A stretch of DNA of 64,000 nucleotides from the sequence record NZ_CP025192.1; one strand, written 5' to 3'. The first letter of the stretch is position 1, and every line of letters starts with the position of its first letter. A program made the translations under genes and the position numbers. This DNA comes from a plasmid. Positions 11,629 to 43,337 of the stretch are shown in pieces. Under the pieces are notes generated by a model that did no database searches, was not told the DNA's origin, and worked only from the letters and a program-made list of their open reading frames with translations.

Positions 11629-13495
11629 TGTCGGCCTCGTTCGTGGGGCGCGCCGCGGGCTGACGGCCTGCGCGCAGCGCTCGGAGCTTGATGCCGGCCT
11701 CCGTCAGCACATACTGCTGGTTTGGCGACCGAGGTTTGTCCGGTACGGTCATTCGCAGTACGCGCGCCTGCAGAAGCGGCTCGAGGTACTGTGCCATGAA
11801 GTGCGGACGCTGCTTGTAGCCCGCCCGCGCCATGAGATCTGCGAGGCTGCGCGGCACGTCCGCGTGCTCGACGACGCGCCACTGGCCTTCAGTCAACCGA
11901 TCAAGCGACCGAACAAGCTCGGGCTGGCTGTCGGCAGCTTGTTCGGTGGCTTGTTCGGTCGTGGATGACGCCGTTGTCTGGTCCCCGCCCCCTTGGCCCT
12001 GTGGCGCCGCACCGGCCAGCGACGGCCCGTAACGCGAGCGGAGATGGGCGGGCAGCGTGTACTGAGCCCCCCCGGTTTCTAGCGGTGCCACCAGAACCTG
12101 GGCAACCAGGCGCTCGATAACCGCCTTCGCCGCAGCACTGGTCAGGCCCGTGAGCGCCTTGACGTCGGTGAGGTCGATGTGGCCGCGGCGGGTAAGGTAC
12201 GCGAAGACCGCCGCCTCGTGCTCCGACAGGCTGGCCCCGAGGCTCGCCTGAGCCAGGAGCTGCTCCTCGGTGATCAGCTTCTCCTTCCGCATCGTCAGCC
12301 GGAAGGTCTTGTCCGCCTTGTCGTTGTCGATCTCCGGCGGGAGATAGCCGAGGCTCCGCCAGCCGTTGAAGATCGCGCCGACCCCGGTGCCGCCCTGGTC
12401 GGACAGACCGATACGCCGGAAGGCGTTCACGACGCTTGGGTTGCGGACCTCCTTGTCGCCGGGGTCCAGCAGCCTTTCCCTCGGGGAGAACGCATCGCCC
12501 GGATTGAAGAACTCGGTCTGGTTATGGAAGAACCTGATCACCGGGAGCCGTGTGTGGTCAGAGAAGTCCTGGTGGATGAGCAGGTTGATGGCCGCCTCGC
12601 GGAAGGACACGTAATCGGCGGGGTCATCGTCGCGTCTAAAGGTCGCCGCGTCGACCGAGAACGGGCGCTCGCTGTGCTTGAAGTAGAAGCCGACGATGCT
12701 CTGCCAGGTCTGGATCAGGTTCTCTTCGCAGGTCACGCGGTCCGCCCAGCGGACGCTCGGGGAGTAGTCATCCGCGCCGCTCCGATACAGCTGCAGGTCT
12801 ACCGCCATGCGGGGTAGGATTTGACGGAAGTAGCCGTCCGCGCCCAGCGTGAGGATCGCTGCCCGAGTCGGGAGCAGGACGCCGCCGTGCTCGACGACGA
12901 AGCTCCACCTGCGCAGGAAGGCGTCATCGTCGTCGCCCTCGTTCCTCCCTGGGTTGCTGGCGTTGAAGCGTGCCCGGTACCACCGCAGCGATGCTGCGTC
13001 GAAGCACTGTTTGATGTCCAAATCCAACGGCTCAGCATCGAAGCGCTCGGTGGCCCCATCCCGATAGAAGCGGAGCAACTCGTCGGCGGTGCACGTGTCA
13101 TCGCGACCACCCCGACGGATGAATGCCTTGCGCAGATCCCGGTCGATGTAGACCGGCTTAGCGCGACGTTCGGCCTCGGGGATCCAGAAGGCCAGCACCG
13201 TGCCTTCGGGCAGATTGTGCAGGTGAGCGCGGACAGGCAGCCGTACGCTAATCTTGTTCAGATCGCGCAATTGGCCGAGGAAGTCGTTCTGAACATTGTC
13301 CGCCTCGACGACGCCGGTGACCGAGAAGGAGCCGCGCGTCTCCTTGACCCCGAACACGAGGTACCCACCCGACGTATTGGCGAACGCGCTCACCGTGGAG
13401 AAGGCATTGCGCGGCACCATCGTGGCGGCCTCCTTGAACTCCACGTCGTTCCATTCGATGGACTGGAGCTTCGCCAGCAACTCGTCGCGGGTCAT
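11621..13495 (-). CDS. AlbA_2 (Schlafen-like) + HATPase_c_4 + C-terminal wHTH protein inserted in the BREX operon
   Basis: SIEWNDVEFKEA...SAFANTSGGYLVFGV matches the AlbA_2 signature. AINLLIHQDFSDH...FFNPGD matches the HATPase_c_4 signature. The ATG at 13495 lies 2 nt after the brxC stop, and the 3' end overlaps the pglX start by 8 nt. The ORF runs to 13930, but its N-terminal 145 aa are an overlap artefact. Confidence 0.7.
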   Translation of the reverse strand: MTRDELLAKLQSIEWNDVEFKEAATMVPRNAFSTVSAFANTSGGYLVFGVKETRGSFSVTGVVEADNVQNDFLGQLRDLNKISVRLPVRAHLHNLPEGTVLAFWIPEAERRAKPVYIDRDLRKAFIRRGGRDDTCTADELLRFYRDGATERFDAEPLDLDIKQCFDAASLRWYRARFNASNPGRNEGDDDDAFLRRWSFVVEHGGVLLPTRAAILTLGADGYFRQILPRMAVDLQLYRSGADDYSPSVRWADRVTCEENLIQTWQSIVGFYFKHSERPFSVDAATFRRDDDPADYVSFREAAINLLIHQDFSDHTRLPVIRFFHNQTEFFNPGDAFSPRERLLDPGDKEVRNPSVVNAFRRIGLSDQGGTGVGAIFNGWRSLGYLPPEIDNDKADKTFRLTMRKEKLITEEQLLAQASLGASLSEHEAAVFAYLTRRGHIDLTDVKALTGLTSAAAKAVIERLVAQVLVAPLETGGAQYTLPAHLRSRYGPSLAGAAPQGQGGGDQTTASSTTEQATEQAADSQPELVRSLDRLTEGQWRVVEHADVPRSLADLMARAGYKQRPHFMAQYLEPLLQARVLRMTVPDKPRSPNQQYVLTEAGIKLRALRAGRQPAARPTNEADNE

Positions 13496-24890: not shown

Positions 24891-26651
24891 TTGCCAGACG
24901 TGTCCGGAACGCTGCCCACGGTTTCCCTCTTCGTCGCGAAGTCGACCCTGACCGAGGGGGCCGATACGGCCCTGAACGCGATCGTCACCCGCACGCCGTC
25001 CGAGCTGACGAGTTCCGTGACCGTGGAATTCTACATCCCCGTCACCACGCGCAATGTCGCCGGAGCGGACGACTTCGTCGGCGGCCTCGCCCCGAAGGTG
25101 GTGACCTTCGCCCCGGGCGAGACGTCCCAGGCGGTGAGCTGGGGCCTCGTCGACGACAACGTCCCGGAGGTCCCCGGCGCGATCGGCCTGTGGCTGCGCA
25201 ACCCGGTCAATGCCACCGTCAGCACGAATGGCGGAGGATCGGCCGGCGTGGTCATCCAGGACAACGATCCGACCGATACGATGAGCATCGCCGCTGTCGG
25301 CGCCTCGGCCGTGCGGGAGGGCGATGCCTCGGACCAGGGCACGCACAAGCTCACCTTCGACATCGTGCGTGAGGGCAACACCTCCTGGCCGGTCACCGCA
25401 GCGATCGTGATCGAGGCCGACACCTCGGCCGGCGCGCATTCGGCCTCATCCAGTGACATCGTGGGCGGCTTCACCACGCAGTGGGTCTATTTCAATTACG
25501 GCGAGACCCATAAGACCTTCGAGGTCACCATCGCCGGCGACAACCTCCTCGAGGGCAACGAGACCTTCGTGGTCCGTATTAGCAACACCTGGAGCCCGTC
25601 GGGCGCACCGGGCTTCCTGACCGGGATCGGCACCGCCGCGGTCACCGCGACGATCCTCGACGACGATACGCCGGTCGTGCCGGGCACCGCCGGCAACGAC
25701 GTCCTGCACCATGCCGACGGCTCCCACATCTACGACGGCGGGGCCGGCTTCGACGTGCTGGACTACGGTGCCGTGGGCCGCCGCGGCCTCGCCGTGACCC
25801 GCTCCGCCGAGGGCGACGTCGTCATCACCCATGGCGGCCAGACGGACACGCTGCGCTCGGTGGAGGAGGTCCGCCTGGCCGACGGGCGCCTTGTCTTCAA
25901 CGAGGCCGACCCGGCGGCACAGGTGGTGCGGCTCTACCACGCGGCCCTCGACCGCGATCCCGAGCAGCAGGGCCTGAACTTCTGGATCGGCCAGCTCAGG
26001 GAAGGCCATGGCCTGCTCGATCTGGCACAGAGCTTCCTCGCCAGCCCCGAGTTCAACTCACGCTACGGCAGCCTGACGGACAGCCAGTATGTCGACCGCC
26101 TCTACCAGAACGTCCTGGGCCGCGAGGGCGAGGCGGCGGGCAAGGCCTGGTGGCTGTCCCAGCTGGACAGCGGCCACAGCCGTGCCGAGGTGCTGCAGGG
26201 CTTCTCCGAGAGCGCCGAGAACAAGGCCAACACGGCCAGCCTCTGGCAGAACGGCATCTGGGACGTCGACGAGCATGCCCTGCAGGCCGCCCGGCTCTAC
26301 GACACGGTGCTGGGCCGGCTGCCCGACGCCCCGGGCCTGGCGTTCCAGGCCTCGCTGCTCGACAGCGGCGTCGCGCTGAGGGACATCGCCGCGGCCTTCA
26401 CCCGCAGCCCCGAGTTCCAGGCGAAATACGGCACGCTGGATGACCGCCAGTTCGTGTCCAACCTCTACCTGAACACGCTGCACCGCGCCGCCGAGCCGGC
26501 CGGGCTGGAACACTGGGTGGCCCAGATCCAGGGCGGTGCGTCGCGCAGCGACGTGGTGCTGGGTTTCTCCGAGAGCCCGGAGCACATCGCCCTGACCAAC
26601 CCGGACTTCATGTCCGACGATCCGGGCCGCTACGGCATCGCCTTCGCCTGA
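24891..26651 (+). CDS. Secreted Calx-beta / RTX calcium-binding repeat / DUF4214-repeat protein (probable T1SS substrate)
   Basis: N-terminal Calx-beta-like segments, a hemolysin-type GGAGFDVLDYG repeat and three DUF4214 repeats (VVRLYHAALDRDPEQQGLNFWIGQL...). Confidence 0.8.
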   Translation: MPDVSGTLPTVSLFVAKSTLTEGADTALNAIVTRTPSELTSSVTVEFYIPVTTRNVAGADDFVGGLAPKVVTFAPGETSQAVSWGLVDDNVPEVPGAIGLWLRNPVNATVSTNGGGSAGVVIQDNDPTDTMSIAAVGASAVREGDASDQGTHKLTFDIVREGNTSWPVTAAIVIEADTSAGAHSASSSDIVGGFTTQWVYFNYGETHKTFEVTIAGDNLLEGNETFVVRISNTWSPSGAPGFLTGIGTAAVTATILDDDTPVVPGTAGNDVLHHADGSHIYDGGAGFDVLDYGAVGRRGLAVTRSAEGDVVITHGGQTDTLRSVEEVRLADGRLVFNEADPAAQVVRLYHAALDRDPEQQGLNFWIGQLREGHGLLDLAQSFLASPEFNSRYGSLTDSQYVDRLYQNVLGREGEAAGKAWWLSQLDSGHSRAEVLQGFSESAENKANTASLWQNGIWDVDEHALQAARLYDTVLGRLPDAPGLAFQASLLDSGVALRDIAAAFTRSPEFQAKYGTLDDRQFVSNLYLNTLHRAAEPAGLEHWVAQIQGGASRSDVVLGFSESPEHIALTNPDFMSDDPGRYGIAFA

Positions 26652-26710
26652 AAAGGCTTGGTTCCGGGGCGTCGGATGCGTCGCCCCGACGCCGGCAGCC
26701 GCGGCGAACA

Positions 26711-26749
26711 CCCGGGGCCCCAGCCATCGCGGCCGGGAGCTTTTCGCGT
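26711..26749 (+). terminator. Terminator-like hairpin + T-tract, homologous to the 24684 terminator
   Basis: CCCGGGGCCCCAGCCATCGCGGCCGGGAGCTTTTCGCGTT. The stem is imperfect. Its sequence context parallels the 24684 terminator. Confidence 0.3.
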
Positions 26750-26831
26750 TCCGGCCTGTTGGCGGCACAGCCGCGCCCTGCAGAACAGACGGATCAGTGG
26801 CGCGAGGGGGAGGTTTTCCCCTCCCGCCCGG

Positions 26832-27197
26832 TCAGCGCCGTCGCATCCGGATGGCGGCCATGCCCAGCAGGAACAGGGATGCCCCGATCAGGACAAGGCC
26901 CGCCAGAAACAGGAGGTCGGGCCAGCTGTCCGCTTCCGTGGGCGTGAAAGCGGTGCGGCCTCGCACGATACCGGCGAGGATGGAGCCCAGCACGATGCCA
27001 CCGGACGCGGCAAGCACCAGGAGGCTGGCCATTCCCGCGCAAGTCAGCCACACCGGCGGATCCCCGGGCAGCTGCCACCAATGGCTGTTGGCGTGGGCTT
27101 CCTGCCGGCGGAGTTCGCGCAGCATCCGCCTGCGCAGGAGGTCGTTGATCTCCTGGTTCTCGCGCCTGCGCTCCTCGTTCGAGACACCATCGCTCAT
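26832..27197 (-). CDS. Small two-TM membrane protein (TnpC-position gene of the recombinase cassette)
   Basis: 121 aa from ATG 27197, with AAGGAG ~10 nt upstream. A charged coiled N-terminus is followed by two hydrophobic helices. Confidence 0.45.
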   Translation of the reverse strand: MSDGVSNEERRRENQEINDLLRRRMLRELRRQEAHANSHWWQLPGDPPVWLTCAGMASLLVLAASGGIVLGSILAGIVRGRTAFTPTEADSWPDLLFLAGLVLIGASLFLLGMAAIRMRRR

Positions 27198-27388
27198 CGG
27201 AGTATCGCTCCTTCGCCACCCCTCACCTCCGGAGTTGGTCGGGGGCAAGTGGGCCGGCAGTGGAAGGCTTCAGGCGGGCACCACGTGGGATATCCCCGGC
27301 GTCCGCATAGGCCAGAAGCGGACATCCTTCCCGGTCTGCGGCAGGAGCATAGGGGGAGGAGAAGTGGAACAGCAAACCGTGACCGTCC

Positions 27389-28408
27389 TCATCGCACCCT
27401 GTTTCCCTGGCGCCGCCTGCGGATGACCTGGGCGTAGAGGGCGGCGGCGCGGTGCTGGCCCGCATGGTTGTAGCCCTGCGCCACGGCCGGCGTGTTGCCC
27501 ACCACCGCTGCCCCGAAGGCCGACGTCTCCCCCAGCCGCATCGCCGCGGTGGTGACCACGCTGTGGCGGATGCGGTGCGTCCCGAAGCCGATCCCGAAAC
27601 GCTTGCGGGAGAGCCGCTGGATCCGGCTGGTGATACCCTGCGCAGTCAGCGGCGTGCCCTGCCGGGTGATCCACAGCGCCTCCTGCCGCTGCCCCGCCAG
27701 CAGCGCCAGGCGGATCACCGCCAGGTAGTGCCGCATCCACGGCGTGAAGGCCGGATGCAGCTCGAAGCGGTCCGGCCGCTTCGTCTTGGTCTGCGCCGCG
27801 GTCAGCTCGACCCGGAAGCACTCCCCCACCTGGCGCAGCTCGTGACCCGGCCGCAGCAGGCTCACCGAGCGCAACCGCCGGCCGCACAGCGCCAGCAGGA
27901 CGATCAGCAGCCCGTCGCGATAGGCGATCAGGGCCCCGGGGTCGTCCCCCTGTTCCAGCCGCGCCAGCGCCCACTCCATCATCGCGAAGCCCCATTCGGC
28001 GATCACCTGCCCGTCGGGCACCACCAGGTGCCGCCTGTCCTTGGGCAGCAGCGCGTTCACCGACACGCCGTCGGGCCTCTGGATCCAGGCCACGTCCGCC
28101 TCCGGCACGATCACCGACAGCGCCATGGCCAGGTGCCTGAAGCGGCCGATGATGGTGTGGTCCGCGTTGCCGGCCCGGCGCAGCGTGCGGAAATAGGCCC
28201 GCAGCCGTGGGCGCGTGACACGCTCCAGCGGCGGCTCGTCCGGATCGAGCCAGCCGCGGCTGTCGAGGAAGGACAGCCGCGGCCATAGCCCTTGGTCAGC
28301 GTGGCGAGCGAGGCCGCGCGCAGCCGGGTACCGGGGCGGACATCCCGGAAGGGCTCGCCCGGCGTGCAGTGCAGCCGCCAGGCGGCACGGTCGGCCTCGG
28401 GCCAGCAT
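27389..28408 (-). CDS. Tyrosine recombinase (smaller member of a tandem pair)
   Basis: C-terminal GTHRIRHS...RLGE catalytic region and an N-terminal SAM-like core-binding region. The ORF extends to 28555; ATG 28408 is the likely start. Confidence 0.7.
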   Translation of the reverse strand: MLARGRPCRLAAALHAGRALPGCPPRYPAARGLARHADQGLWPRLSFLDSRGWLDPDEPPLERVTRPRLRAYFRTLRRAGNADHTIIGRFRHLAMALSVIVPEADVAWIQRPDGVSVNALLPKDRRHLVVPDGQVIAEWGFAMMEWALARLEQGDDPGALIAYRDGLLIVLLALCGRRLRSVSLLRPGHELRQVGECFRVELTAAQTKTKRPDRFELHPAFTPWMRHYLAVIRLALLAGQRQEALWITRQGTPLTAQGITSRIQRLSRKRFGIGFGTHRIRHSVVTTAAMRLGETSAFGAAVVGNTPAVAQGYNHAGQHRAAALYAQVIRRRRQGNRVR

Positions 28409-28445
28409 GCCAGCGGCCAGCACAGGCGGGATCGCGGGATCGCGC

Positions 28446-30254
28446 TCATCGCCGGCTACCCCGCCGCGTGTCGCGCTGTCCGCCCCCCGGCGTGCCGCCA
28501 CTCCGGCGGCCCATGACGAGGTCCTGGTAGCGGCGCGCGGCCCGGCCCTGCACATTGCCGCTGTAGCGCCTGGTGATCTCGAAGGAGGAATGGCCGAGCA
28601 GCTGGCGCAGCTCCTCGTAGTGGTCGGGGAAGGCTTCCAGGAACAGCGTCGCTGCCAGGTGACGGAACTGGTGCGGCGTCATGTTCACCCCGACATGCGT
28701 GGCGATCGCCCCCTTGATGGCATCGCGCAGGCCCTGATGGCCGATCCGCTCGCCCGGCCTGCCGTACCCCGGGAACAGCCAGCGGCAACCCGGGATGGCG
28801 GGGCGGTAGTCCGCGATCCATTCGCGGATCAGCGCCGAGAGCCCGGCCGGGATCGGCATCCTGATCTCCTTCCTGCCCTTGGTCTCTCCGGGCGGGATCC
28901 ACAGCTCGGTGATGGCACCGCGCCGGGGATCGGGACGGTAGAGGTTCCGGTCCAGATCGAGGCCCGCGAGGTTGGCCAGGCGCAGCGGCAGGTGCGTCAG
29001 GATGGCGATCGCCAACGCCCGCATGGCCAGCGACCGGGCCTGCGGCGGCGCCTCGTCACGCAGCCGTCGCGCGGCGCCCATCAGCACCCCGGGCAGCTCC
29101 AGCAGCGCCGTCAGCTTGTCCGGCTGCAGGATGGCCTGCATCGTGCGCTCGTTGCGCAGGGTCATGCCGTCGTATTTCAGCGCGACCCTGTCCCGCCAAC
29201 CCTGGAGCCGTTCCAGCTGCCGCGGGGACAGCGCCCCATGGTGCTTCGCGATGATGCGCAACACCTCGGCCACGTGGTGGCCGGCCGCCGATGGCCGGCG
29301 TTCCCGCTCGCCCTCGGCGGCCTCGGCGCGGCGGTAGAGGAAGCCGATCGCCGCCTCGATGCGCCCGAAGGGCGACACCAGGTCCCGCAGCGAGGTGATC
29401 TGCTCCATCGGCACCGCGCCGCTGGCCACCAGCGCGCTCGCCGCCCAGCGGGCGTGGTCCACCCGCATCGCCACGGTGGAGGGACGCAGCGGCCGCATGT
29501 CCAGCAGCCTGTTCTCCTCCTCCGCCGATCCGGGCTCGGGCAGGTCGAGCACGTTGCTGCCCAGCCGCCGCCGGAAGGCCTCGAGATCGGCCCGGAAGCT
29601 CGCTGGGAAGGCCTCGGGCGGCAGCACGTAGGCCTTGGGCCGGGCCAGCCGGCCCAGCGGCCGTCCCGGCCAGTCCGCCACCTCGCGGCAGGCACGGTTC
29701 CAGCCGCCGCGGACATCGCCGGCCGTCTTGCGGGGTTTGGGCGTCAGGTTGCGCTCCGTGAGCCAGGCCTCGAAGTCCGCCAGCGCCGCGTCGTCCACCG
29801 CCTCCGGCGCCACGCCCCGGACGCTGCAGAAGCGGGCGAAGGCGATCAGGCCGTAGGGGCGGTAGGCGGGCAGGCCTGCCAGCGCCGCCCGCCAGGCGGG
29901 CGAGAGGGGCGCGTCCGCGGGATCCATCAGGCCCAGGCGCCGCAGCACGTAGCGCAGCGCCGAGCGCAGGGTGCACATGGTCGGGCGCTTGACGCCGTGA
30001 TGGGTGGCGGTGCGGTCGAAGACCCGCTCGCGCAGGAAGACGGGGCTCAGCTCGACGGCCGCGGGCGGCAGGTCCGCCAGCCTGCAGACGCCGCGCAGGG
30101 CGGAGGCGAGGTCGCGCCGGCGGGTGGGGGTGAGGTCGTCCCAGCGGGCGACCTCGGCCAGCGCCATGGCGACGGTGAGCGGGATCCCGGCGGACAGGCC
30201 GGAGGCCTGCTCCAGGGGTGCCGCGGGGGCGGGAGGACGGGCGGAAAGATGCAT
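28446..30254 (-). CDS. Tyrosine recombinase (large, ~600 aa; Tn554 TnpB-like size)
   Basis: HQFRHLAATLFL...LGHSSFEITRRYSG carries the R-H-R-Y catalytic signature. ATG at 30254; the ORF extends to 30359. Confidence 0.75.
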   Translation of the reverse strand: MHLSARPPAPAAPLEQASGLSAGIPLTVAMALAEVARWDDLTPTRRRDLASALRGVCRLADLPPAAVELSPVFLRERVFDRTATHHGVKRPTMCTLRSALRYVLRRLGLMDPADAPLSPAWRAALAGLPAYRPYGLIAFARFCSVRGVAPEAVDDAALADFEAWLTERNLTPKPRKTAGDVRGGWNRACREVADWPGRPLGRLARPKAYVLPPEAFPASFRADLEAFRRRLGSNVLDLPEPGSAEEENRLLDMRPLRPSTVAMRVDHARWAASALVASGAVPMEQITSLRDLVSPFGRIEAAIGFLYRRAEAAEGERERRPSAAGHHVAEVLRIIAKHHGALSPRQLERLQGWRDRVALKYDGMTLRNERTMQAILQPDKLTALLELPGVLMGAARRLRDEAPPQARSLAMRALAIAILTHLPLRLANLAGLDLDRNLYRPDPRRGAITELWIPPGETKGRKEIRMPIPAGLSALIREWIADYRPAIPGCRWLFPGYGRPGERIGHQGLRDAIKGAIATHVGVNMTPHQFRHLAATLFLEAFPDHYEELRQLLGHSSFEITRRYSGNVQGRAARRYQDLVMGRRSGGTPGGGQRDTRRGSRR

Positions 30255-30355
30255 TCGGCAATCTCCGGAAAGATGCGGCGAATCGGGAGCACACAGCACT
30301 CTAATCCCAGGCCGATTGGCGCCCCGGGGTCTCACGACAGGCTCGTAAGGGGTTG

Positions 30356-30808
30356 TCATGACGGAGTTTTCCCGCGGGCCGGCCCACCGGCAGCGGGAGC
30401 ATCGGCACGGCCCTCACGGCTGCCGCCGGAGCGGTCCCGCCGGCTCTCCAGGATGGCCTGGCGCATGCGGCCGCCGAGCAGGGCGCGGACCTCCTCCTCG
30501 CGGAAGTAGACCGCGCGTCCGACGCGCAGCGGCGCGAGGTATCCCCGTCGCACCCAGTCGCGCAGGGCCCGCTCGGAGCGACGGAACACGGCCGCCACCT
30601 CGGCCGCCGTCAGCAGCTTCGGCAGGGATGCGGCGGGGGATCGGTCGGGCGCTGACGGCGTGGTGTCCGCAGCGCCGTCCGGGTGCGAGAAATCCGCCGT
30701 GGCCGGAGGCGCCCGTGGCGGGCGCGGCAGGAGCGGCGAGACGTTGCGTCCCGGTCCAGGATCGGGGCGGCGGGCCGGTGCCGGCCTGCGTTGCGGGTGT
30801 GTGACCAT
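30356..30808 (-). CDS. Excisionase-family (AlpA/Xis-like) helix-turn-helix DNA-binding protein
   Basis: LLTAAEVAAVFRRSERALRDWVRRGYLAPLRVGRAVYFREEEV matches the excisionase-type HTH. It lies directly upstream of the large recombinase. Start uncertain. Confidence 0.5.
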   Translation of the reverse strand: MVTHPQRRPAPARRPDPGPGRNVSPLLPRPPRAPPATADFSHPDGAADTTPSAPDRSPAASLPKLLTAAEVAAVFRRSERALRDWVRRGYLAPLRVGRAVYFREEEVRALLGGRMRQAILESRRDRSGGSREGRADAPAAGGPARGKTPS

Positions 30809-30937
30809 GGACAGGCCACTTGCATCACGACCGCCGCGTTCGTCCGCTGAGTTAATTGAACGTTTGATATCGTAACGAATCAGGCCCGGCCATGTGAGCC
30901 TGGGCGCTGGCCAGATCGGTGCTGCCTGACGCCGGGA

Positions 30938-32017
30938 TCAGCGCGATGTGCGGCGGGTGGCCTTCAGCACGGTGGCGGCGATCCGGCGGTAGTTGCGACG
31001 TTCCGCGTCTGTCATCTCCGCCGGGAATTCCCGGTGATAGGCATGCTCGATGCCGAGAAATCGCCGGCGCAGATCCTCCGCATCCGCCTCGCCCAGGGTG
31101 ACCTGCTCCGGATCCCCTCCCTGCCAGCTCGTGGCCGCCTTCCTGGCGTGCAGGATCTCCTCCTCCGCCACCTCGCGGATCGCATCGCCCAGCCGGTAGC
31201 GGCCACGCCGGACATCGTGCCAGCGGCAGGCCAGCCGGGCGCGGACGGACTGCGCGAGAAGGAACGTATCGCCGCGCGGACGGCCAGGACCGGCGGGCGG
31301 TACCTGGCCGGAAAGCCGGATGGCCTCCGCGCCGAGCTTGGCCAGATCCTGGACATGGCGAAAGTCAGTGGGTGCAAGCTCCCCTTCCCCATCGAGCCAG
31401 CGGGGAAGGCGCCGGAGCAGGTCCTGGATCTCGCGTGCCGCCGCGGCGTTGCCGGAACGGCGCCCGCCTTTGCGTTCGGGAACAGCCACGGAGCGGCCGA
31501 GCCTGCCGATCTCGGCACCGGCCTTCGTGACCAGCAGCAGGGTCTGCAGCGCCGGCAACCCGGCCCATTCGCCACGCCGGAGGGCACGCAGCGTCTCCAG
31601 GACGAGACGCAACAGCCCGTCGCCCGCCGCGACGATCAGGGGGTGCCGGCGGATCTCCTCGAACCGCTGGCGCGATGGCGCGGTTCGGTGAGGATGCGGC
31701 CGTGGAGGTGCGGGCGAGCGCCGCGGCCGCCTGCTGTCCGAGGGCCGGATCCGCCCGCGCCTTGCCGCCTCGAGGAAGTCCGGCAGCGGCCAGGACCAGC
31801 GCTCGTTGGCGGAGGTAAAGCCGCGGACGATGCCGTCCGCGATCCGGGTGATCCTGCGGGTCTCGCCATCCTCCAGGAAGACCGCGCCGGGCCGGACCCA
31901 GGCCGCATGGTCCGCGTCGGGTGGATCGGTTGGGGGAGGCAGCGTGTCCGGCACCGGCGAAGCATCCGATTGTACTTCCCACCGATGCCACCACCCGGAA
32001 TATCTGTCGACGATCAT
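30938..32017 (-). CDS. Hypothetical protein
   Basis: 359-aa ORF with protein-like composition. The overlapping plus-strand ORF 31034-32638 is Arg-rich junk. Confidence 0.45.
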   Translation of the reverse strand: MIVDRYSGWWHRWEVQSDASPVPDTLPPPTDPPDADHAAWVRPGAVFLEDGETRRITRIADGIVRGFTSANERWSWPLPDFLEAARRGRIRPSDSRRPRRSPAPPRPHPHRTAPSRQRFEEIRRHPLIVAAGDGLLRLVLETLRALRRGEWAGLPALQTLLLVTKAGAEIGRLGRSVAVPERKGGRRSGNAAAAREIQDLLRRLPRWLDGEGELAPTDFRHVQDLAKLGAEAIRLSGQVPPAGPGRPRGDTFLLAQSVRARLACRWHDVRRGRYRLGDAIREVAEEEILHARKAATSWQGGDPEQVTLGEADAEDLRRRFLGIEHAYHREFPAEMTDAERRNYRRIAATVLKATRRTSR

Positions 32018-32071
32018 GACGGTGACCGGCCAGGGGACGACAGGCCACCGCCGGCACTTTCCGCTCTCCCC

Positions 32072-32557
32072 TCAGTTTGTTGCGGCCGGCGGTCTCCAGC
32101 AGGCCTGCAGGTCGCGGGCGATGGACCAGGCGATGTATTCGCCGCCGTGGCGAGGAGTCATGGGCAAGGGCCGCAGATGTCCCCGGTTCTCCAGACGCTG
32201 TGCTACCCGCAGCTTGGCCTGCAGGCCGTCGCGTCCCCGGGCAGGGGTCGCGATCAGCGCCTGCTCGACCTCGGAGAGCCAGTCGGTGGCGGCATCGAGC
32301 TCGGGCTTGAGCCGGTCCTCATCGGCGAGGGTCCGTGCCCGCGCCTGCAGCGCTCCCAGGGCGGCGTAGGCATTCCGCCACTCGGCATGGAGGCGCTGGA
32401 GCTTCGTGTCCGGATCACCGGCCGGCCTCATTGCCGATACGGCATTGCGGAAGGCGGCAAGGTTCAGGCTGCCGGCAATCAGTGCGGCAAGCGCGGCACG
32501 ACGGGAAAGGCCGCCTCTGCTTCGGTGGCGGTTTGTGATACGGGCATGCTTAGCCAT
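32072..32557 (-). CDS. Hypothetical exported protein (Tat-like signal)
   Basis: N-terminal RRAALAALIAGSLNLAAF signal-like segment. Confidence 0.5.
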   Translation of the reverse strand: MAKHARITNRHRSRGGLSRRAALAALIAGSLNLAAFRNAVSAMRPAGDPDTKLQRLHAEWRNAYAALGALQARARTLADEDRLKPELDAATDWLSEVEQALIATPARGRDGLQAKLRVAQRLENRGHLRPLPMTPRHGGEYIAWSIARDLQACWRPPAATN

Positions 32558-32712
32558 GGCCGGCTGATCCCTTCAGCAGCTGTGGTCAGGCCGGGCGGGA
32601 GGGGTCCAGCCTCTCGTCCGGTCGCTCTGATATTGTGAAGGTTCCTCCTCACACGTAATGTGTAACCCTACTCATTCAGTTGAACAACTCAATTTGAGTA
32701 AGGTAACTCGTT

Positions 32713-32952
32713 TTGGAAATCACGCCCGCGCAGTGCCGTGCGGCTCGTGCTCTGCTGAATTGGTCGCAGGATCAGCTGGAGACAGCGGCCAAGGTAGCGC
32801 GCAAGACCATCGCCGATTTCGAACGCGAAGTCCGCCGGCCGTACGCGCGGACGCTGGAGGCTCTTCGTGCCGCTCTGGAAGCGGCAGGAGTGGAATTCAT
32901 TCCCGAGAACGGAGGAGGCGCCGGGGTGCGCCTGCGGAAGCAATCCTCGTGA
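32713..32952 (+). CDS. XRE-family helix-turn-helix transcriptional regulator
   Basis: AQCRAARALLNWSQDQLETAAKVARKTIADFE is an HTH_3/XRE signature. TTG start. Confidence 0.7.
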   Translation: MEITPAQCRAARALLNWSQDQLETAAKVARKTIADFEREVRRPYARTLEALRAALEAAGVEFIPENGGGAGVRLRKQSS

Positions 32953-33287
32953 AGGCCTGGATTGTCGCTCCTGGCCTGCTCCTCACCCAGGCGGGCACTG
33001 CCATGGCACAGGCCATCGCCGTCCCGTCCGATCCCCGGGCGCGCTACGAGCTGGTCAGGAAGGTCAGGCGCGACGATGGCCTGGTCGAGATCACCACGCG
33101 CCGCCAGGGCCCGTCCGGTACGTCCTTCGCCCGGCGTGAGGTCGATTGCCGCCGGCGGTTGTTCCGCTACCTCAGTGAGGGTGACACCCTGGAAGAGGCT
33201 AGGCGCCCGGCCCCCAGTCCCGGCAGGATGTCTCCCCTCTTCGACGGCTCCATCTCCGACCACATCGCGCGCTTCGCATGCCGGTAG
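32949..33287 (+). CDS. Small secreted hypothetical protein
   Basis: The GTG start overlaps the XRE gene stop (GTGA). N-terminal signal peptide VKAWIVAPGLLLTQAGTAMAQA. Confidence 0.4.
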   Translation: MKAWIVAPGLLLTQAGTAMAQAIAVPSDPRARYELVRKVRRDDGLVEITTRRQGPSGTSFARREVDCRRRLFRYLSEGDTLEEARRPAPSPGRMSPLFDGSISDHIARFACR

Positions 33288-35190: not shown

Positions 35191-35886
35191 ATGCCGACCA
35201 TATCTCTTGCCAGCTCTAAAGGTGGCGCTGGCAAGTCCACGACAGCCGTCGTCCTGGCGACCGAACTCGCCGCGCGTGGCGCGACCGTCACTCTCATTGA
35301 TGCCGACCCGAACCAGCCGGTCGTCCGATGGAGCCGGAAGGCCGGGAAGCCGGAAGGTGTTATTGTCATCGGCGGCGTCACCGAGGAAACAGTGTCGGAG
35401 GTGATCGATGAGGCTGCCGGCCAGACGCAATTCGTCATTGTTGACCTGGAAGGCACGGCGTCCGTCATGGTCGCCTATGCCATGAGCCGGTCGGATCTGG
35501 TCATCATACCGATGCAGGGGTCGGAACTCGACGGTGTCGAGGCGGCCAAGGTGATCGGCTTCATCAGGCGGCAGGAGAAGGCCTACAAGCTGTCGATCCC
35601 ATACGCTGTCCTGTTCACTAAGACGAACCCGGCCGTCCGGCCGCGGACGCTGAAAGCGCTTGAAGCGGACTTCCTGAAGCAGGGCATCCCCGTTTTCTCG
35701 ACCGCCCTGCATGAACGGGACGCGTTCCGCGCCGTGTTTAGCTTCGGCGGCGGCTTGGCCAGCTTGGCCGACAAGCCTGTCGGCGGATTGAAGCCCGCAG
35801 CCGAGAACGCCCGCGCCCTGATGACCGAAGTCGTAACCCGCCTGGATAAGCAGGCGGCGCCAGCCCAAGCCGCGGAGGTCGCATAA
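35191..35886 (+). CDS. parA: ParA-family partition ATPase (second copy)
   Basis: Deviant Walker A SKGGAGKSTTAV. Confidence 0.85.
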   Translation: MPTISLASSKGGAGKSTTAVVLATELAARGATVTLIDADPNQPVVRWSRKAGKPEGVIVIGGVTEETVSEVIDEAAGQTQFVIVDLEGTASVMVAYAMSRSDLVIIPMQGSELDGVEAAKVIGFIRRQEKAYKLSIPYAVLFTKTNPAVRPRTLKALEADFLKQGIPVFSTALHERDAFRAVFSFGGGLASLADKPVGGLKPAAENARALMTEVVTRLDKQAAPAQAAEVA

Positions 35887-36311
35887 TGTCCAACATACGC
35901 CCCAGCATCTTCGCCGAGGACTCTGACGACGACGTCGACCTTACCCGTTTCGCGCCGAAGGCTCTGAAGCCACCGCCTGTGCCAGCCGCCGACATACGCC
36001 GCCTGTCCGAGGAATCCGGCTTTCCCAGTCGTGCGCCGTCATCTGGCGACAGACAGACAACAGTAGCGCAACTGTCAACTGTTGGCACTTTGCCAGCACC
36101 TGTGCGCCGCCCCGCAAAGACAGGCCGGACCCAGCTGTTGAACGCCCGCGTCACGCCGAAGGCGCTTGAGCGCTATCATGCGATCGTCGCAGCCGAGCAG
36201 CAGCGGTACGAGGCCGGGGAAATCACGCATAAGCCGACGCTCGGTGAGATCGTCGAGATGGCCCTGGCGGCCCTGGAGAGGGAGCGCGCCAAGAAGGGAA
36301 GGGGGGCATGA
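35886..36311 (+). CDS. Ribbon-helix-helix partition/centromere-binding protein (second copy)
   Basis: C-terminal LNARVTPKALERYHAIVAAEQ is RHH-like. Overlaps both the parA stop and the rep start. Confidence 0.55.
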   Translation: MSNIRPSIFAEDSDDDVDLTRFAPKALKPPPVPAADIRRLSEESGFPSRAPSSGDRQTTVAQLSTVGTLPAPVRRPAKTGRTQLLNARVTPKALERYHAIVAAEQQRYEAGEITHKPTLGEIVEMALAALERERAKKGRGA

Positions 36312-37172
36312 GCGGAAAGCGCCCGGTCGTCCGGCCCCAGCTGGACCTGTTTGTCCCGTTCCTGTCCGACATCGATCTGCGCGACCAGATGGAGCTGATG
36401 GAGCGGCCGTTCTTCAGCCTGTCCAAGAACAAGCGGATGAGGGAGATCGACTACAGGAGCCCGGACGGCACAGTCAGCCTCAAGGTGAAGCCGCACCAGG
36501 CCTATGGTATGGCGACGATCTGGGATGCCGACATCCTGATCTGGGCGGCGTCGCAGCTGAGCAGCATGAAGAACAAGGGCGTCAACGACCTGCCCCGCAC
36601 GCTGCACACCCGCACCTATGATCTGTTGAAGGCGATCGGCCGTGGCACGGGCGGCGACCATGCGAAGCTGCTGGTCGTCGGCATCGCTCGCCTTAAATCG
36701 ATGATGATCGAGACGAACATCGGCCGCAAGGACGGAGAAGAGATGGCGATCTTCAGCTGGATCGACGCCGGCGGCGGGACGGCATACTGGTCGGTGACGA
36801 CGATGCCGGGATCTCGATCACGCTGTCGGACTGGTTCTATCGCCGCGTGCTGGACGACCGCGCCCTGCTGACGATCGACCCGGCTTATTTCGCGATCACC
36901 GGCGGCCGCGAACGCTGGCTGTACCGCGTCGCGCGCAAGCATGGCGGCGGCAACGGCGGCAACGGCTTCGCCATCAGCTTCCCAACTCTGTTCGAGAAAT
37001 CCGGTGCCGAGGGCACCTATCGGCGCTTCAAGTTCGAGCTGCTGAAAATCATCGAGCGCAACGCGCTGCCAGGATTCGACCTGTTCCTGGAGACGGGGAG
37101 AGGAGGGGACCCAGCCCTGCGTATGGTGCGCGCGACGGAGCCTAAGGCCGAGCCGGCAGACGATCAGCTCCT
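36308..37172 (+). pseudogene. repA: RepA (RPA-family) replication initiator, frameshifted near 36775 and 3'-truncated by an IS6 insertion
   Basis: Frame A (36308-) reads ...EEMAIFSWIDAGGG and then degenerates. Frame B continues GILVGDDDAGISITLSDWFYRRVLDDRALLTIDPAYFAIT..., homologous to the 19727 RepA. The shift occurs in a GGCGGCGGG run. The ORF then reads into the IS left inverted repeat at 37173. Confidence 0.55.
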
Positions 37173-38006
37173 GGGGCATTGTCACGTTGTTTGGGGACCG
37201 AGCAAGTTTGACCGCGAGGCGGAGTTTGCGTGACCTTACGCCGCCATATGGGCACACGTCTCCTGCCGCCAGATCCGAAAGGCCTTGGAGCGCTCGCGCC
37301 GGTATTGATCGGCGGCCATCAGGTGCCGCCGCGGACGGAAGTGGCCATAGATCATCGCGTGCGCCGACAAAAACCGCTGGGCTTGCCCGGCTGACTTGAA
37401 GCGCTGCATCGCGCGTTCTCGACGTCGGGTCGGCCTATGGGAATTCTCGGCACGATTGTTCAGGTAGCGGCTGGTCCGATGCTGCACACCGGGTAGGACC
37501 TCTCGCTGTGCAACGCCATAGCTGCGGAGCCCATCGGTGACGATCTTGCGGGGTCTATACTGGAGGCCCACCAGCAGGCGCTTGAAGAAGCGTTTGGCGG
37601 CCGTGGCATTGCGGCGCTCCTGCACCAGGATGTCGAGCACGACTCCGTGCTGATCCACCGCGCGCCAGAGATAAAAGAGCTCGCCGTTGATCTTCAGGTA
37701 AACTTCATCCATGTGCCAGGTGTCGCCCGGTCTTGGCCGCCGCTTGCGCAGCTTGGCCGCGAACTCCGTGCCGAAGCGGAGGCACCAGCGACGGATACTC
37801 TCGTAGCTGACCACCACGCCCCGCTCGGCCAGGATCAGCTCGATGTCGCGTAGGCTCAGGCTGAACAGGTGGTAGAGCCAGACAGCATGCTGGATGACCT
37901 CGGCCGGGAAACGGTAGCCGGGGTAGGTGGTGGGCTCGGACGGCATGCCGCCAGCTTCGCCTGACGAGTTCGTTCCAGCCAGAGCTGGCCAACGTGACAA
38001 TGCCCC
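37173..38006 (-). mobile_element. IS6-family insertion sequence (834 bp) with perfect 17-bp terminal inverted repeats GGGGCATTGTCACGTTG
   Basis: Left IR at 37173-37189 and its reverse complement at 37990-38006. A single IS6-family DDE transposase gene lies between them. No target-site duplication (flanks CAGCTCCT vs GGGTCGCA). Confidence 0.7.
37236..37946 (-). CDS. tnp: IS6-family (IS26-like) DDE transposase
   Basis: WHMDEVYLKINGELFYLWRAVDQHG...VTDGLRSY matches the IS6 DDE core. ATG 37946 lies inside the IS; the ORF extension to 38015 would leave the element. Confidence 0.75.
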   Translation of the reverse strand: MPSEPTTYPGYRFPAEVIQHAVWLYHLFSLSLRDIELILAERGVVVSYESIRRWCLRFGTEFAAKLRKRRPRPGDTWHMDEVYLKINGELFYLWRAVDQHGVVLDILVQERRNATAAKRFFKRLLVGLQYRPRKIVTDGLRSYGVAQREVLPGVQHRTSRYLNNRAENSHRPTRRRERAMQRFKSAGQAQRFLSAHAMIYGHFRPRRHLMAADQYRRERSKAFRIWRQETCAHMAA

Positions 38007-40249: not shown

Positions 40250-42275
40250 TCTCGCCGTGCAGGGCCGGCCGATCGCCGGTCTGACGCGCACCCAGGCCGA
40301 GGCGGCTTCGCTGACCGGAGCGGTGCTGGTGCTGGCCGGTGCCGGGACCGGCAAGACCAGCACCCTCACCGCCGGCGTCGCGCTGCGCATCGCCGAGCGT
40401 GGCATCCCGGCCGCCCGGATCCTGGCCGTGACCTTCACCAACAAGGCTGCCGGCGAGATGCGGGCGCGCATCGTCGCGCTGCTCGGGGGACAGTCCGCGC
40501 CGTCCTGGATCGGCACCTTCCACGGGCTCGGTGCCCGGCAGCTCCGGCTGGAGCCGGAGATGGCCGGTCTGCGGGCGGATTTCGATGTGCTCGATGCCGA
40601 CGATGCCAGGCGACTGCTCAGGCGCGTCATGAAGGCGTCCGGGACGGAGGCGGGCGAGGACGAGATCATCGGCAAGGACCCCGTCAAGGCGATCGCCGGC
40701 CATATCGGGCGCTTCAAGGAGAACATGGTCACGCCCGCCCAGGCGGCGGTCCGGGTCGAGGCCATGCTGGCCGCCAGTCCGCTGGCCGATGCCTCTGGGC
40801 TGCGCGCCGCAGCGCGCCTCTACCCGGAGTATCAGCGCCGGCTGCGAGACGCCAATGCCGCCGACTTCGGGGACCTCCTGCTCTGGCCCGCCGTGGCGAT
40901 GGCAGCCGACGAGGAGCGCCGCCGCCGCCTTGCCGGCCGCTTCTCCTGCCTGCTCGCCGACGAGTACCAGGACGTGAATGCCGTGCAGTACCGCTGGCTT
41001 CGGCTGATGGCGCAGGACCACGGTGAGATCTTCGCGGTGGGCGACGACGATCAGGCGGTGTTCGGCTGGCGAGGCGCCGATATCGAGTACATCCGGCGCT
41101 TCACGCGGGACTTCCACGGCTCTGCCGTGGTCAAGCTGGAGGAGAACTTCCGCTCCACCGGGCATATCCTCGCCGCGGCCAATGCGGTGATCGCGCGCGA
41201 CGACACTCGGCTCGGCAAGACGCTCCGACCCACGCGCGAGCAGGGCCAGCCGATCGAGGTGGTGAGGTTCCGCAACGACGAGGCCGAGGCCACCGGCCTC
41301 GCCTCGGAGATCCGCAGCCGCCACGCAGAAGGCGTACAATGGCAGGACATGGCCATCCTCTACCGCGCCAACCACCTCTCGCGCGGAATCGAAGACGAGT
41401 TGCTGCGGGCCAAGGTGCCCTACGTCCTCGTCGGCGACGTCGCCTTCTACCAGCGTGCCGAGATCAAGGATGCCCTCGCGCTGCTGCGCCTCGCCAACTC
41501 GCCAGACGACTGCCAGTCCGACGAGGCCTTCCGCCGTGCCTGCAACAACCCGCCCCGTGGCATCGGTCCGAAAGCCCTCGACCTGCTGGAGCGCGACGCG
41601 GAGTGGCGTGGATCGTCCCTGCTGGCGGCGTGCCACACCGCCGACTTGCCGCCCCGGGTCCGGGGCACGGCGGGAACCTTCGCCGATGCCATTCGAGGCG
41701 TCGCGGCCGATTCCACGGCCTCGGTCGCCGACCGGCTCTCCCAGCTGCTCGACCGCACCGGCTATCGCCAGTGGCTCCGCGACAGCAGGGCCGAGACGGT
41801 CGAAGGGAGGCTGGAGAACCTCGCGGAGCTGGTGCAGCTGGCCAGTGGTTTCCATTCCGCGACCGATCTGCTGGAGCATGCCGCCCTGGCCAGCGCAGCT
41901 CCCGGCGAGGAGACCGAAGGGCGGGTGCAACTCCTCACCCTCCACCGGGCCAAGGGCCTGGAGTTCGGGCACGTCTTCCTGCCTGCCTGGAACGACACGA
42001 TCTTTCCGAGCCAGTACGGTGATGCTGCCGAGGAACGGCGCCTGGCCTATGTGGCCCTGACCCGGGGCAAGGAGCGGGTGGCCGTCAGCTACGCCGAGTT
42101 CCGGCGCGGCTACGTCGATCCCTCGCCGTTCCTCGACGACATCCCGGCCGACAACCGCCACGAGGGCTGGCTGCGGCCCGTGGCGCGGCGGCCAGCGCGG
42201 ATCTCGCCCCGTCAGGCCGGTATGGACGCCCTCAACGAGATGGTCGCCGGCCTTCGGTCCCGGCCGACGGCATAG
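40233..42275 (+). CDS. UvrD/Rep-family superfamily 1 DNA helicase
   Basis: Walker A GAGTGKTSTL. UvrD motifs (TFTNKAAGEM; LLADEYQDVN; VGDDDQAVFGWRGA; LTLHRAKGLEF). ATG at 40233. Confidence 0.8.
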   Translation: MSSASDLAVQGRPIAGLTRTQAEAASLTGAVLVLAGAGTGKTSTLTAGVALRIAERGIPAARILAVTFTNKAAGEMRARIVALLGGQSAPSWIGTFHGLGARQLRLEPEMAGLRADFDVLDADDARRLLRRVMKASGTEAGEDEIIGKDPVKAIAGHIGRFKENMVTPAQAAVRVEAMLAASPLADASGLRAAARLYPEYQRRLRDANAADFGDLLLWPAVAMAADEERRRRLAGRFSCLLADEYQDVNAVQYRWLRLMAQDHGEIFAVGDDDQAVFGWRGADIEYIRRFTRDFHGSAVVKLEENFRSTGHILAAANAVIARDDTRLGKTLRPTREQGQPIEVVRFRNDEAEATGLASEIRSRHAEGVQWQDMAILYRANHLSRGIEDELLRAKVPYVLVGDVAFYQRAEIKDALALLRLANSPDDCQSDEAFRRACNNPPRGIGPKALDLLERDAEWRGSSLLAACHTADLPPRVRGTAGTFADAIRGVAADSTASVADRLSQLLDRTGYRQWLRDSRAETVEGRLENLAELVQLASGFHSATDLLEHAALASAAPGEETEGRVQLLTLHRAKGLEFGHVFLPAWNDTIFPSQYGDAAEERRLAYVALTRGKERVAVSYAEFRRGYVDPSPFLDDIPADNRHEGWLRPVARRPARISPRQAGMDALNEMVAGLRSRPTA

Positions 42276-42314
42276 CAGGCCGCTGCTCGATCACATCCCC
42301 ACAGGAAACCAGCG

Positions 42315-43160
42315 ATGCACACCGAAGCCTCCTTCATCCAGCGCCTCGAGCGCTACCGTTCCTCGAACACCGTGCCCCATGCGGTTTGGGTCGCGGACTG
42401 GCAAGCCGAGACCGATCGATGGAGCGATCCCGTGCTCCTGCCCCGCAGCAACGTCGAGCCGGCCCTCGCGGCGGCCGAATTCGTGCAGAGCCTGGACCGG
42501 GAGATGGACCGTCAGGCCGCGGACAGGTTCTTCTCCGCCTGGGGCGGTCGCGTGGCATGGTTCTTCTGCCGCCGGGAGGGGGACGTCGCGGTCGCCTACC
42601 TTCGTCAGGCCGTGGGACATCATTCTCCCATCCTTATGGGCTGGACGGACAGGGTGGAGAACAAGATCCAGGACGTGGCGCACGCCCATCCGCTCCTGGC
42701 ACGCTTCCTGGGCATGAGAGAGTACAGTTGGGACACCCCGGAGTACCGGACCCTGTGTGCCGACCTCGGCCTCGATCCGGACTTCCAGCGGCCCTGTCCC
42801 CTGCCGGAGCATGCGGAGATGGGCGGCCAGCTGATCCGCTGGCTCGGCAAGCAACTCAACATCCTGGGTGTCATCGGGCCGGCGATGGACGATCCGCGGT
42901 GGGTGTACCTGAACTTGGGGAGGGACATGGTCACGGCCCTGCTACCCGAGGGCCGTGAACGCCCCTGGACCATCCGCGAGATCCTCGGGCGTCTCAAGGC
43001 GGTGCCCCCGCATGCCGTGCCATGCCGTGACGAGTTCCTGCGGGCCTTCGCAGACGTTCCTGCCGCCGAGCCGGGAGAGCGGCCGTGGCGGCCAGTTCCG
43101 CCGCCGAGCTTTTTCGCCCGTGTCGAGGCACTGCTGAGGCGTCCCGTGCAAGGGCGCTGA
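42315..43160 (+). CDS. Hypothetical protein
   Basis: 281-aa ORF, protein-like, downstream of the helicase. Confidence 0.5.
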   Translation: MHTEASFIQRLERYRSSNTVPHAVWVADWQAETDRWSDPVLLPRSNVEPALAAAEFVQSLDREMDRQAADRFFSAWGGRVAWFFCRREGDVAVAYLRQAVGHHSPILMGWTDRVENKIQDVAHAHPLLARFLGMREYSWDTPEYRTLCADLGLDPDFQRPCPLPEHAEMGGQLIRWLGKQLNILGVIGPAMDDPRWVYLNLGRDMVTALLPEGRERPWTIREILGRLKAVPPHAVPCRDEFLRAFADVPAAEPGERPWRPVPPPSFFARVEALLRRPVQGR

Positions 43161-43189
43161 GGAGCGTCGAAGGAAAGGGAGGTGGAGTG

Positions 43190-43337
43190 GCAGGAGGCCC
43201 TGCCACCCTCGCCCGGTGCGCAGCAAGGGTTCGTCGGCTGGTGCCTCCCGCCGCTGCGCGGCGCCCTTGTCTCGCCCCGGATCGGGGCGGCTGCGGGGAG
43301 GGGTCTTCAAGAAGAAGACCAGCAGGAGATTCCACCC
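43190..43337 (+). repeat. Leader repeat copy 2
   Basis: GCAGCAAGGGTTCGTCGGCTGGTGCCTCCCGCCGCTGCGCGGCGCCCTTGTCTCGCCCCGG...AAGAAGAAGACCAGCAGGAGATTCCACCC followed by GTG. Confidence 0.6.

Follow-up and report, generated by a model that had tools for sequence, protein, structure and literature searches.

Site-specific recombination by two paralogous tyrosine recombinases on one asymmetric site has its paradigm in XerC and XerD, and the exchange of one strand pair by each of two enzymes, which is established for XerC/XerD, has been proposed for TnpA and TnpB of Tn554. In Tn554 the element ends are defined, and insertion has a specific target site with a 6-bp footprint; RIT (recombinase-in-trio) elements have three consecutive tyrosine recombinase genes (RitA, RitB and RitC) with terminal inverted repeats of ~34 bp. 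A 2023 survey divides the prokaryotic mobile elements that move by tyrosine recombinases into five groups, namely ICE/IME, SE, GInt, RIT and Tn554, and found no SE/GInt synteny blocks in Alphaproteobacteria (PMC10214605). The SE (strand-biased circularizing integrative element; IntA, Tfp, IntB, Srap) and GInt (GinABCD) systems are operons of several proteins of tyrosine-recombinase fold with a small accessory protein, located at one end of the element, and in GInts the stop codon of the last gene marks the start of the cargo (PMC5385486, PMC10214605). Van Houdt et al. (2012) described actinobacterial plasmid pairs in which a long recombinase of 611–828 amino acids (aa) lies beside one of ~350 aa; the long proteins have an N-terminal extension of >400 aa with no recognisable domain and a C-terminal catalytic motif, some pairs have no TnpC partner, and Tn554-related long and short pairs were also found on Novosphingobium plasmids (PMC3414803). 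Here, we describe a module in a 64,000-nucleotide stretch of plasmid DNA (sequence record NZ_CP025192.1; the whole stretch is referred to below as the window) in which the genes for a helix-turn-helix (HTH) protein, a long tyrosine recombinase and a short tyrosine recombinase follow one another on the minus strand. This module may be a decayed member of a sixth, so far undescribed kind of multi-recombinase mobile module that is abundant in Alphaproteobacteria and that, together with a serine recombinase, would form a mixed tyrosine/serine machine in an element of ~5–6 kb made almost solely of recombinases. In the literature searched we found no description of the HTH_17-long-short module, of its fusion to a serine recombinase, or of any mixed tyrosine/serine recombinase operon.

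The four minus-strand open reading frames (ORFs) that a first-pass annotation had placed in this part of the window are all present and correctly located. The first gene of the operon (30356..30808, minus strand) encodes an excisionase/MerR-like DNA-binding protein of 150 aa, residues 65–111 of which match Pfam HTH_17 (E = 2.9e-10, 40.7 bits against a cut-off of 27). The earlier description of this protein as Xis/AlpA-like holds for the HTH domain; the match to the excisionase model TIGR01764 ('excise') is only weak, at 19.3 bits under a cut-off of 28.8, and an excisionase role is one that we infer from sequence, and not a family assignment. The protein aligns with homologues at the same position in other loci, in most of which an HTH ORF precedes the long recombinase. 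Its Pro-rich N-terminal half is specific to Roseomonas, and distant homologues are 78–147 aa long. Between the HTH stop codon and the ATG of the long recombinase lies a spacer of ~100 nt (30255..30355, minus strand), which is 80–85% identical across all four Roseomonas modules aligned, compared with mostly 50–80% for the remainder of the modules; distant loci have a gap of 77–164 nt at this position. The spacer may encode a 35-codon N-terminal extension of the recombinase (through an ATGA overlap at 30359) or, since more distant homologues begin at 'MH' codons, may be a non-coding control or recombination site. No further copies of it were found elsewhere in plasmids.

The long recombinase gene (28446..30254, minus strand) is annotated by PGAP as encoding 602 aa, in an ORF that extends to an ATG at 30359 and then comprises 637 aa. 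Residues 448–600 of the longer ORF match Pfam Phage_integrase (E = 3e-13, 50.3 bits, cut-off 27.1). Within the family R425, R531, H532 and Y564 do not vary and K459 hardly does, the catalytic R/K/H/R/H/Y set being kept in 53–56 of 56 members, and the earlier call of a ~600-aa tyrosine recombinase is borne out by both the domain match and this conservation. An AlphaFold2 model (mean confidence score, pLDDT, 82) is all-helical over residues ~28–420 and continues into a C-terminal catalytic domain. Solved structures of XerH and XerA (the best matches) and of XerD correspond to the C-terminal part of the model only: the end of the helical region and the catalytic domain are Xer-like, and the rest of the ~420-residue N-terminal extension has no match. 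Homologues remain full-length (~560–640 aa) down to about 30% identity.

The short recombinase gene (27389..28449, minus strand) is a pseudogene in this plasmid. DNA and protein alignment with three homologous Roseomonas genes (in loci L002, which is plasmid p3-HV1, L003, and L004, which is R. gilardii plasmid 2) places the native start at 28449, where the ATG overlaps the stop codon of the long gene as ATGA, and shows that one T of a Trp codon is missing between 28279 and 28278. This 1-nt deletion breaks the native frame after about 57 codons; intact, the protein would have ~353 aa. PGAP annotates the remainder (27389–28408) as a 339-aa 'hypothetical protein', and of the family profile the two ORF pieces cover positions 1–57 and 5–352. 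In p3-HV1 the operon is intact (NZ_CP034922.1, 43206–45577, with the short gene at 42155–43204). The identical deletion is present in CP099475.1, an independent assembly of the near-identical plasmid pTT14-4 from another strain, so the frameshift is very probably real. Of the earlier claim of a ~340-aa tyrosine recombinase, the identity of the protein stands and the intactness of the gene does not. The score against Pfam Phage_integrase is 24.6 bits, just under the cut-off of 27.1, and in the short family the catalytic R/K/H/R/Y residues are kept in 58–59 of 59 members, the third His being the only position that is not conserved. Because the catalytic residues are kept across both families, their members are expected to be active enzymes, unlike the inactive Tfp and GinC proteins of SE/GInt elements. 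Separately, pTT14-4 has a 1-nt insertion in the spacer at window position 30330 and a 2-nt deletion inside the long gene (window 28883–28884); barring sequencing errors, both recombinase genes are disrupted in that strain.

We surveyed 68 loci from species-representative genomes, together with further plasmid and metagenome loci. The 68 hosts are mostly Alphaproteobacteria (Acetobacteraceae, Rhodospirillales, Hyphomicrobiales), with a minority made up of a few Beta- and Gammaproteobacteria, Gemmatimonadota, Planctomycetota and Blastocatellia. The order HTH_17, long, short is found in about 65 of the 68 loci, usually with overlapping or abutting stop and start codons, and again in the further plasmid and metagenome loci. 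Long and short proteins co-vary in their pairwise identities (rho = 0.58). Chance does not come near to explaining how regularly the two recombinases are paired, and the proposal of a linked unit of HTH protein and two recombinases is upheld by their co-orientation, their overlapping or abutting codons, their synteny in >60 loci and this covariation. The long family is large: a profile search of 1.84 billion representative proteins returned 2,523 clusters (50% identity) at E ≤ 1e-30, and the best 150 matches are mostly near full length. Homology among relatives ends at the stop codon of the short recombinase, with variable or defence genes beyond. In plasmids the module lies beside partition and replication genes, as in Roseomonas and R. 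haemaphysalidis; in Pukyongiella p4 it is followed by ParA, a stability gene and Rep, and in a metagenomic contig by ParA and RepA_C. A phage origin was ruled out, as isolated phages match the catalytic domain only and IMG/VR yielded one distant relative.

Several loci carry defence-type genes directly 3' of the short recombinase (L085 4549–13354, L006 13056–15673 and L014 6925–11700), comprising a BREX system (PglZ, BrxC/PglY, helicase), PRTase-CE with a reverse transcriptase, and an HD protein with a DEAD-box helicase and a nuclease. A KilA-N-domain gene lies 3' of the module in Dankookia (L015 7333–12318) and 5' of it in Falsiroseomonas (L016 689–6432); the two genes share 76% nucleotide identity and the same orientation, and the two blocks are circular permutations of each other, as might result from a circular intermediate or from a simple rearrangement.

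The majority of the family members found lie on long chromosomal contigs, where a tRNA gene and a further integrase usually adjoin the module. About half of the chromosomal loci found have a large serine recombinase (Resolvase, Recombinase and Zn-ribbon domains), which in 33 loci follows the short recombinase on its 3' side, usually in the same operon (e.g. L032 7559–12324, L038 6353–12224 and L028 7983–12458). The gap between the two genes is ≤16 nt in 20 of 30 loci, and in 7 they overlap as ATGA. In 19 of 29 scanned loci the last ~44 nt of the serine recombinase gene coincide with the 3' half of a tRNA-Met(CAT) gene encoded on the other strand. In most cases this tRNA has the C1·A72 mismatch typical of initiators, and in L028 it comes after 16S, tRNA-Ile, tRNA-Ala, 23S and 5S, i.e. 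at the end of an rRNA operon. In Paracoccus, a prophage with a serine recombinase is known to integrate into tRNA-Met (PMC6536676). Five other loci have a classical ~385-aa tyrosine integrase in place of the serine recombinase, beside tRNA-Lys or tRNA-Met, and in two (L052 and L072) a tRNA gene stands directly 3' of the short recombinase. The serine recombinase is a separable partner of the tyrosine pair: the identities of the two are weakly correlated (rho = 0.36–0.42), there are clear cases of shuffling, and in L006 and L018 cargo lies between the short recombinase and the serine recombinase.

Signs of movement come from a single metagenome-assembled genome in which the 4.8-kb unit of HTH, long, short and serine recombinase genes is present twice (L032 and L046), the copies being 92% identical and their flanks unrelated on both sides. 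After the serine recombinase, L029 (12348–12442) and L032 (12302–12345) have only the 3' half of tRNA-fMet, from the anticodon loop to CCA, and L046 (~12137–12149) has only its last 13 nt; none of these fragments is at a tRNA-fMet gene. The duplicate copies and the tRNA-fMet 3' halves away from tRNA-fMet genes argue that the 4.8-kb unit moves, and suggest that the element carries a tRNA-like segment along and can land at secondary sites. The association of the HTH/long/short unit with mobile DNA is supported.

In the window the module occupies a 5.3-kb segment (26753..32094) that varies between plasmid backbones. This was delimited by blastn against plasmid p4-HV1 and by junction alignments, and spans from directly past the terminator of a DUF4214 gene to the last ~7 codons of a 161-aa gene. 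The p4-HV1 flanks are 92–95% identical to the window up to 26752 and again from about 32091–32095; between them p4-HV1 carries a homologous module whose long recombinase is 35% identical and whose upstream gene is unrelated. The right junction (32091–32105) is seen again in the comparison with L004. The Roseomonas plasmids share the module and the backbone on its HTH side (hypothetical genes, XRE, toxin-antitoxin and ParA), and their homology ends no more than about 30 nt past the stop codon of the short recombinase, with different DNA beyond it in each. The module thus behaves as a swappable cassette in a conserved backbone. Second copies of the DNA just 3' of the short recombinase were not found elsewhere in plasmids. 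An 8-nt repeat, CGCGTTCC, at both p4-HV1 junctions was considered as the core of an attachment (att) site and dropped, being unmatched in the window and with a different left junction in p3-HV1.

The 127.6-kb plasmid of Roseomonas sp. FDAARGOS_362 (NZ_CP024584.1) contains three copies of the backbone and module (L088–L090, at 4691–8041, 58176–60593 and 111134–114556). Two resemble p4-HV1 (99.4–99.8% identical), one of them with its recombinase genes annotated as split, and the third resembles p3-HV1; the plasmid is either an assembly artefact or a cointegrate of plasmids that are separate in strain HV1. The annotation suggests a breakpoint between the HTH gene and the long gene in this plasmid, but this proved to be an artefact, both copies being p4-HV1-identical at that level throughout.

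The 7 kb surrounding the module are 100% identical to plasmid unnamed2 of Roseomonas mucosa HV2 (NZ_CP025063.1, 183,675 bp, circular). The RefSeq gene order runs from the DUF4214 protein (plus strand) through the 121-aa and 339-aa hypothetical proteins, the 602-aa site-specific integrase, the 150-aa HTH protein and 359-aa and 161-aa hypothetical proteins (all minus strand) to an XRE regulator (plus strand), a Doc/AbrB toxin-antitoxin pair, ParA, replication initiator protein A as two coding sequences, and an IS6 transposase. Within the ParA/RepA/IS6 stretch (35191–37946), the RepA gene adjoining the module is frameshifted at ~36757–36775 and ends at residue 295 of 349 (37173), and a copy of IS6 (37236–37946) lies directly past this truncated gene. 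ParA (35191–35853) shares 99% identity with its counterpart in the p3-like copy of the backbone on the FDAARGOS_362 plasmid, and ParA and RepA together are 97–99% identical to that copy; the recombinases of the window are only about 68–70% identical to their p3-type counterparts. Within the 183-kb plasmid, the p3/p4-HV1-like maintenance backbone (XRE, Doc/AbrB, ParA and RepA) has the look of a decaying relic of a plasmid of ~50 kb that was once separate and has been fused in, a picture with which the frameshifted recombinase agrees. With the short recombinase frameshifted and the neighbouring RepA frameshifted and truncated next to an IS6 copy, the copy of the module described here is decayed and probably inactive. 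No tRNA gene, tRNA-fMet remnant or serine recombinase was found in the window, and no Rfam family matches within 26000–33000. Elsewhere in the window, positions 9001–11000 have a GC content of 0.51 compared with about 0.69 in the remainder, and are possibly a separately acquired insert.

Two further genes of the segment lie outside the conserved core. The 121-aa ORF (26832..27197, minus strand) encodes two hydrophobic helices, has AAGGAG about 10 nt 5' of its ATG and has no Pfam match. It is homologous only to a 126-aa ORF of L003 (84% nucleotide identity) and is absent from L002 and L004. The two-transmembrane protein with a good ribosome-binding site noted earlier therefore exists as described but is not a conserved component of the module; it is variable cargo beside it. 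The possibility that it is an analogue of TnpC was ruled out, as it is not conserved and has no similarity to the Tn554 protein. On the other side, 5' of the HTH gene, a 359-aa hypothetical gene (30938..32017, minus strand) is 95% identical in L003 and 81% in L002, and is replaced by an unrelated gene in L004 and p4-HV1 and by unrelated genes of 216–281 aa at the same position in other loci. It was ruled out as a conserved fourth component, its position being conserved and its sequence not.

With modest confidence, we favour the reading that the module integrates and excises the DNA that carries it, or moves it in a transposition-like manner, and that the present copy is inactive. The HTH protein and both recombinases would together integrate, excise or otherwise move their carrying mobile DNA: the recombinases would assemble into a hetero-oligomer at an asymmetric site, where each would exchange one strand pair, and the HTH protein would be an architectural or regulatory factor that bends DNA or controls expression. 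A number of observations weigh against this. In p3-HV1 the DUF4214 stop codon is immediately adjacent to the module, so that junctions differ among plasmids, and homologous or illegitimate exchange fits such variable junctions as well as site-specific insertion does; the data fit both ordinary recombination that exchanges alleles and a site-specific insertion of different elements at one place. A search around the module in the window found neither a recombination site nor a terminal repeat or target duplication, and the inverted repeats (17–31 nt, 70–94% complementarity, around 26400–32800) include none at the segment ends. Around the compact chromosomal copy L009, terminal or flanking repeats amount to chance-level matches only, and no distal att repeat of the tRNA was found within the 8–10 kb flanks of the chromosomal loci. 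In most of these another integrase stands between the module and the tRNA, and the module may therefore not be the integrase of those islands. The literature searched contains no experimental test of any family member. The first-pass annotation had proposed a discrete mobile element inserted in the replicon; the comparison with p4-HV1 does delimit a discrete 5.3-kb segment, element ends and att sites were not found, and such an element, in a decayed copy, is plausible.

The location of the plasmid modules next to ParA/Rep and toxin-antitoxin genes fits equally well with a role in plasmid stability, in which a self-contained Xer-like heterodimer would resolve multimers or cointegrates of plasmids or excised islands at its own dif/cer-like site, with the HTH protein as accessory or regulatory factor. 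XerC, XerD, XerA and XerH are the closest named or solved relatives, Roseomonas plasmids form cointegrates (the FDAARGOS_362 plasmid with its three backbone copies), and the conserved ~100-nt spacer lies 5' of the long recombinase, a frequent place of res-type sites. Furthermore, the co-resident plasmids p3-HV1 and p4-HV1 have backbones that are 92–95% identical and modules that have strongly diverged, as expected if cross-reaction is avoided. We nevertheless hold this explanation, the main rival, to be unlikely, since most members are off plasmids, on long chromosomal contigs beside a tRNA and another integrase, one genome holds two 4.8-kb copies whose flanks are unrelated, and a dif-like inverted repeat was not identified around 26400–32800. 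To our knowledge, described resolution systems use one recombinase or the host Xer proteins. The abrupt end of homology at the stop codon of the short recombinase, with different DNA past it in every plasmid and with BREX, PRTase-CE plus reverse transcriptase, or nuclease plus helicase genes directly downstream in several loci, could also point to site-specific inversion or cassette exchange of this variable DNA in the manner of a shufflon or integron. However, neither arrays of inverted or direct repeats nor cassette-like units were found beside the module, and many loci have a fixed serine recombinase or integrase as the following gene in place of variable cargo, which makes such a switch very improbable. 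That two unrelated integrases with their own att sites merely lie side by side has nothing in its favour besides both being tyrosine recombinases, and is refuted by synteny to the point of being negligible: their adjacent order is identical, with overlapping or abutting codons, in >60 loci, the proteins co-vary, and the pair does not separate into independent integrases, an outcome that the first-pass annotation had named as refuting its reading. Membership of the Tn554 family itself, with rearranged homologues of tnpB, tnpA and tnpC, draws on the similar sizes (about 600, 350 and 121 aa), on the catalytic residues in both recombinases and on the Tn554-related long and short pairs of Van Houdt et al. 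(2012) (PMC3414803). It is largely refuted and has only the slightest probability, for reasons that emerge from direct comparison with a real copy of Tn554.

That reference copy (L083) was found using a TnpA sequence as probe (99.7% match), and the profile comparisons used single Tn554 sequences, so their sensitivity is limited. Columns 505–658 of the long-family profile align with TnpB residues 356–504 at a probability of 93, which is no better in kind than the match to TnpA (probability 89, catalytic domain only), and nothing in the Tn554 proteins aligned with the ~420-residue N-terminal extension. The short-family profile matches TnpB (probability 92, core-binding and catalytic domains only) instead of TnpA (probability 9.6). 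The catalytic domain occupies residues 330–505 of 630 in TnpB, followed by a C-terminal tail, but the extreme C-terminus of the long protein described here, and Pfam Phage_integrase scores are 160 bits for both TnpA and TnpB compared with 50 for the long and 25 for the short protein. The real TnpC matches DUF6262 at E = 8e-15, whereas the 121-aa ORF and its L003 homologue have no Pfam match, and no similarity to TnpC was found for the 121-aa ORF by BLASTP or for the HTH alignment by hhalign.

If the module is active, it would constitute a new recombination system and, with its serine partner, would unusually unite two types of recombinase within a single operon; it is common in Alphaproteobacteria, on plasmids and chromosomes, and has its own architecture. 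For this plasmid the message is smaller, namely a broken copy in an apparent decaying remnant of a former separate plasmid of ~50 kb.

Compared with known systems, the module resembles Tn554 in pairing an ordinary and a long tyrosine recombinase, both catalytic and co-transcribed with a small accessory protein, with cargo that begins directly after the recombination genes. The sizes also correspond, at 602 aa for the long and ~353 aa for the short protein once the frameshift is corrected, alongside 630 aa for TnpB, 361 aa for TnpA and 125 aa for TnpC. The gene order differs (HTH, long, short, as opposed to short, long, TnpC in L083), as do the accessory protein (an upstream HTH_17 protein instead of a downstream DUF6262 protein) and the hosts (Alphaproteobacteria instead of Staphylococcus and Enterococcus). 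The kinship with Tn554 suggested by the first-pass annotation is not sustained, with similarity confined to the core-binding and catalytic domains, and from these sequence comparisons the module is best described as a Tn554 analogue in layout and not as a Tn554 family member. Nor does the suggested resemblance to RIT elements persist: there are two recombinases instead of three, one of ~600 aa, the flanking ORFs, for HTH_17 or hypothetical proteins, have no integrase domain, and inverted repeats of the RIT type were not found at the segment ends. A likeness remains in the similarly compact units of 4–5 genes in L032 and L038, which have the HTH gene, two tyrosine recombinases and one serine recombinase. 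Going by their description, the actinobacterial pairs have a similar overall design; in a tblastn search against plasmids, the actinobacterial records match the long protein of the window over the catalytic domain only (residues ~387–565).

Among named and solved proteins, XerC, XerD, XerA and XerH come closest to both catalytic domains, but the long protein scores 39.3 bits where the cut-off of the XerC NCBIfam equivalog is 335, and the short protein scores 23.9 bits. The module further differs from the Xer proteins in the ~420-residue N-terminal region of the long protein and in the adjacency of its genes in one operon with the HTH gene, on mobile DNA. Like SE and GInt elements, it has an operon in which a large and an ordinary recombinase, both active, are accompanied by a small accessory protein. 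Those systems, however, also have a catalytically dead protein of recombinase fold (Tfp, GinC) and a downstream coiled-coil accessory protein (Srap, GinD); going by their descriptions, the module is set apart by its two complete recombinases, by having no third, and by its upstream HTH_17 accessory protein. By analogy, we infer that the module may be a functional counterpart of the multi-recombinase modules of the Tn554, SE and GInt type.

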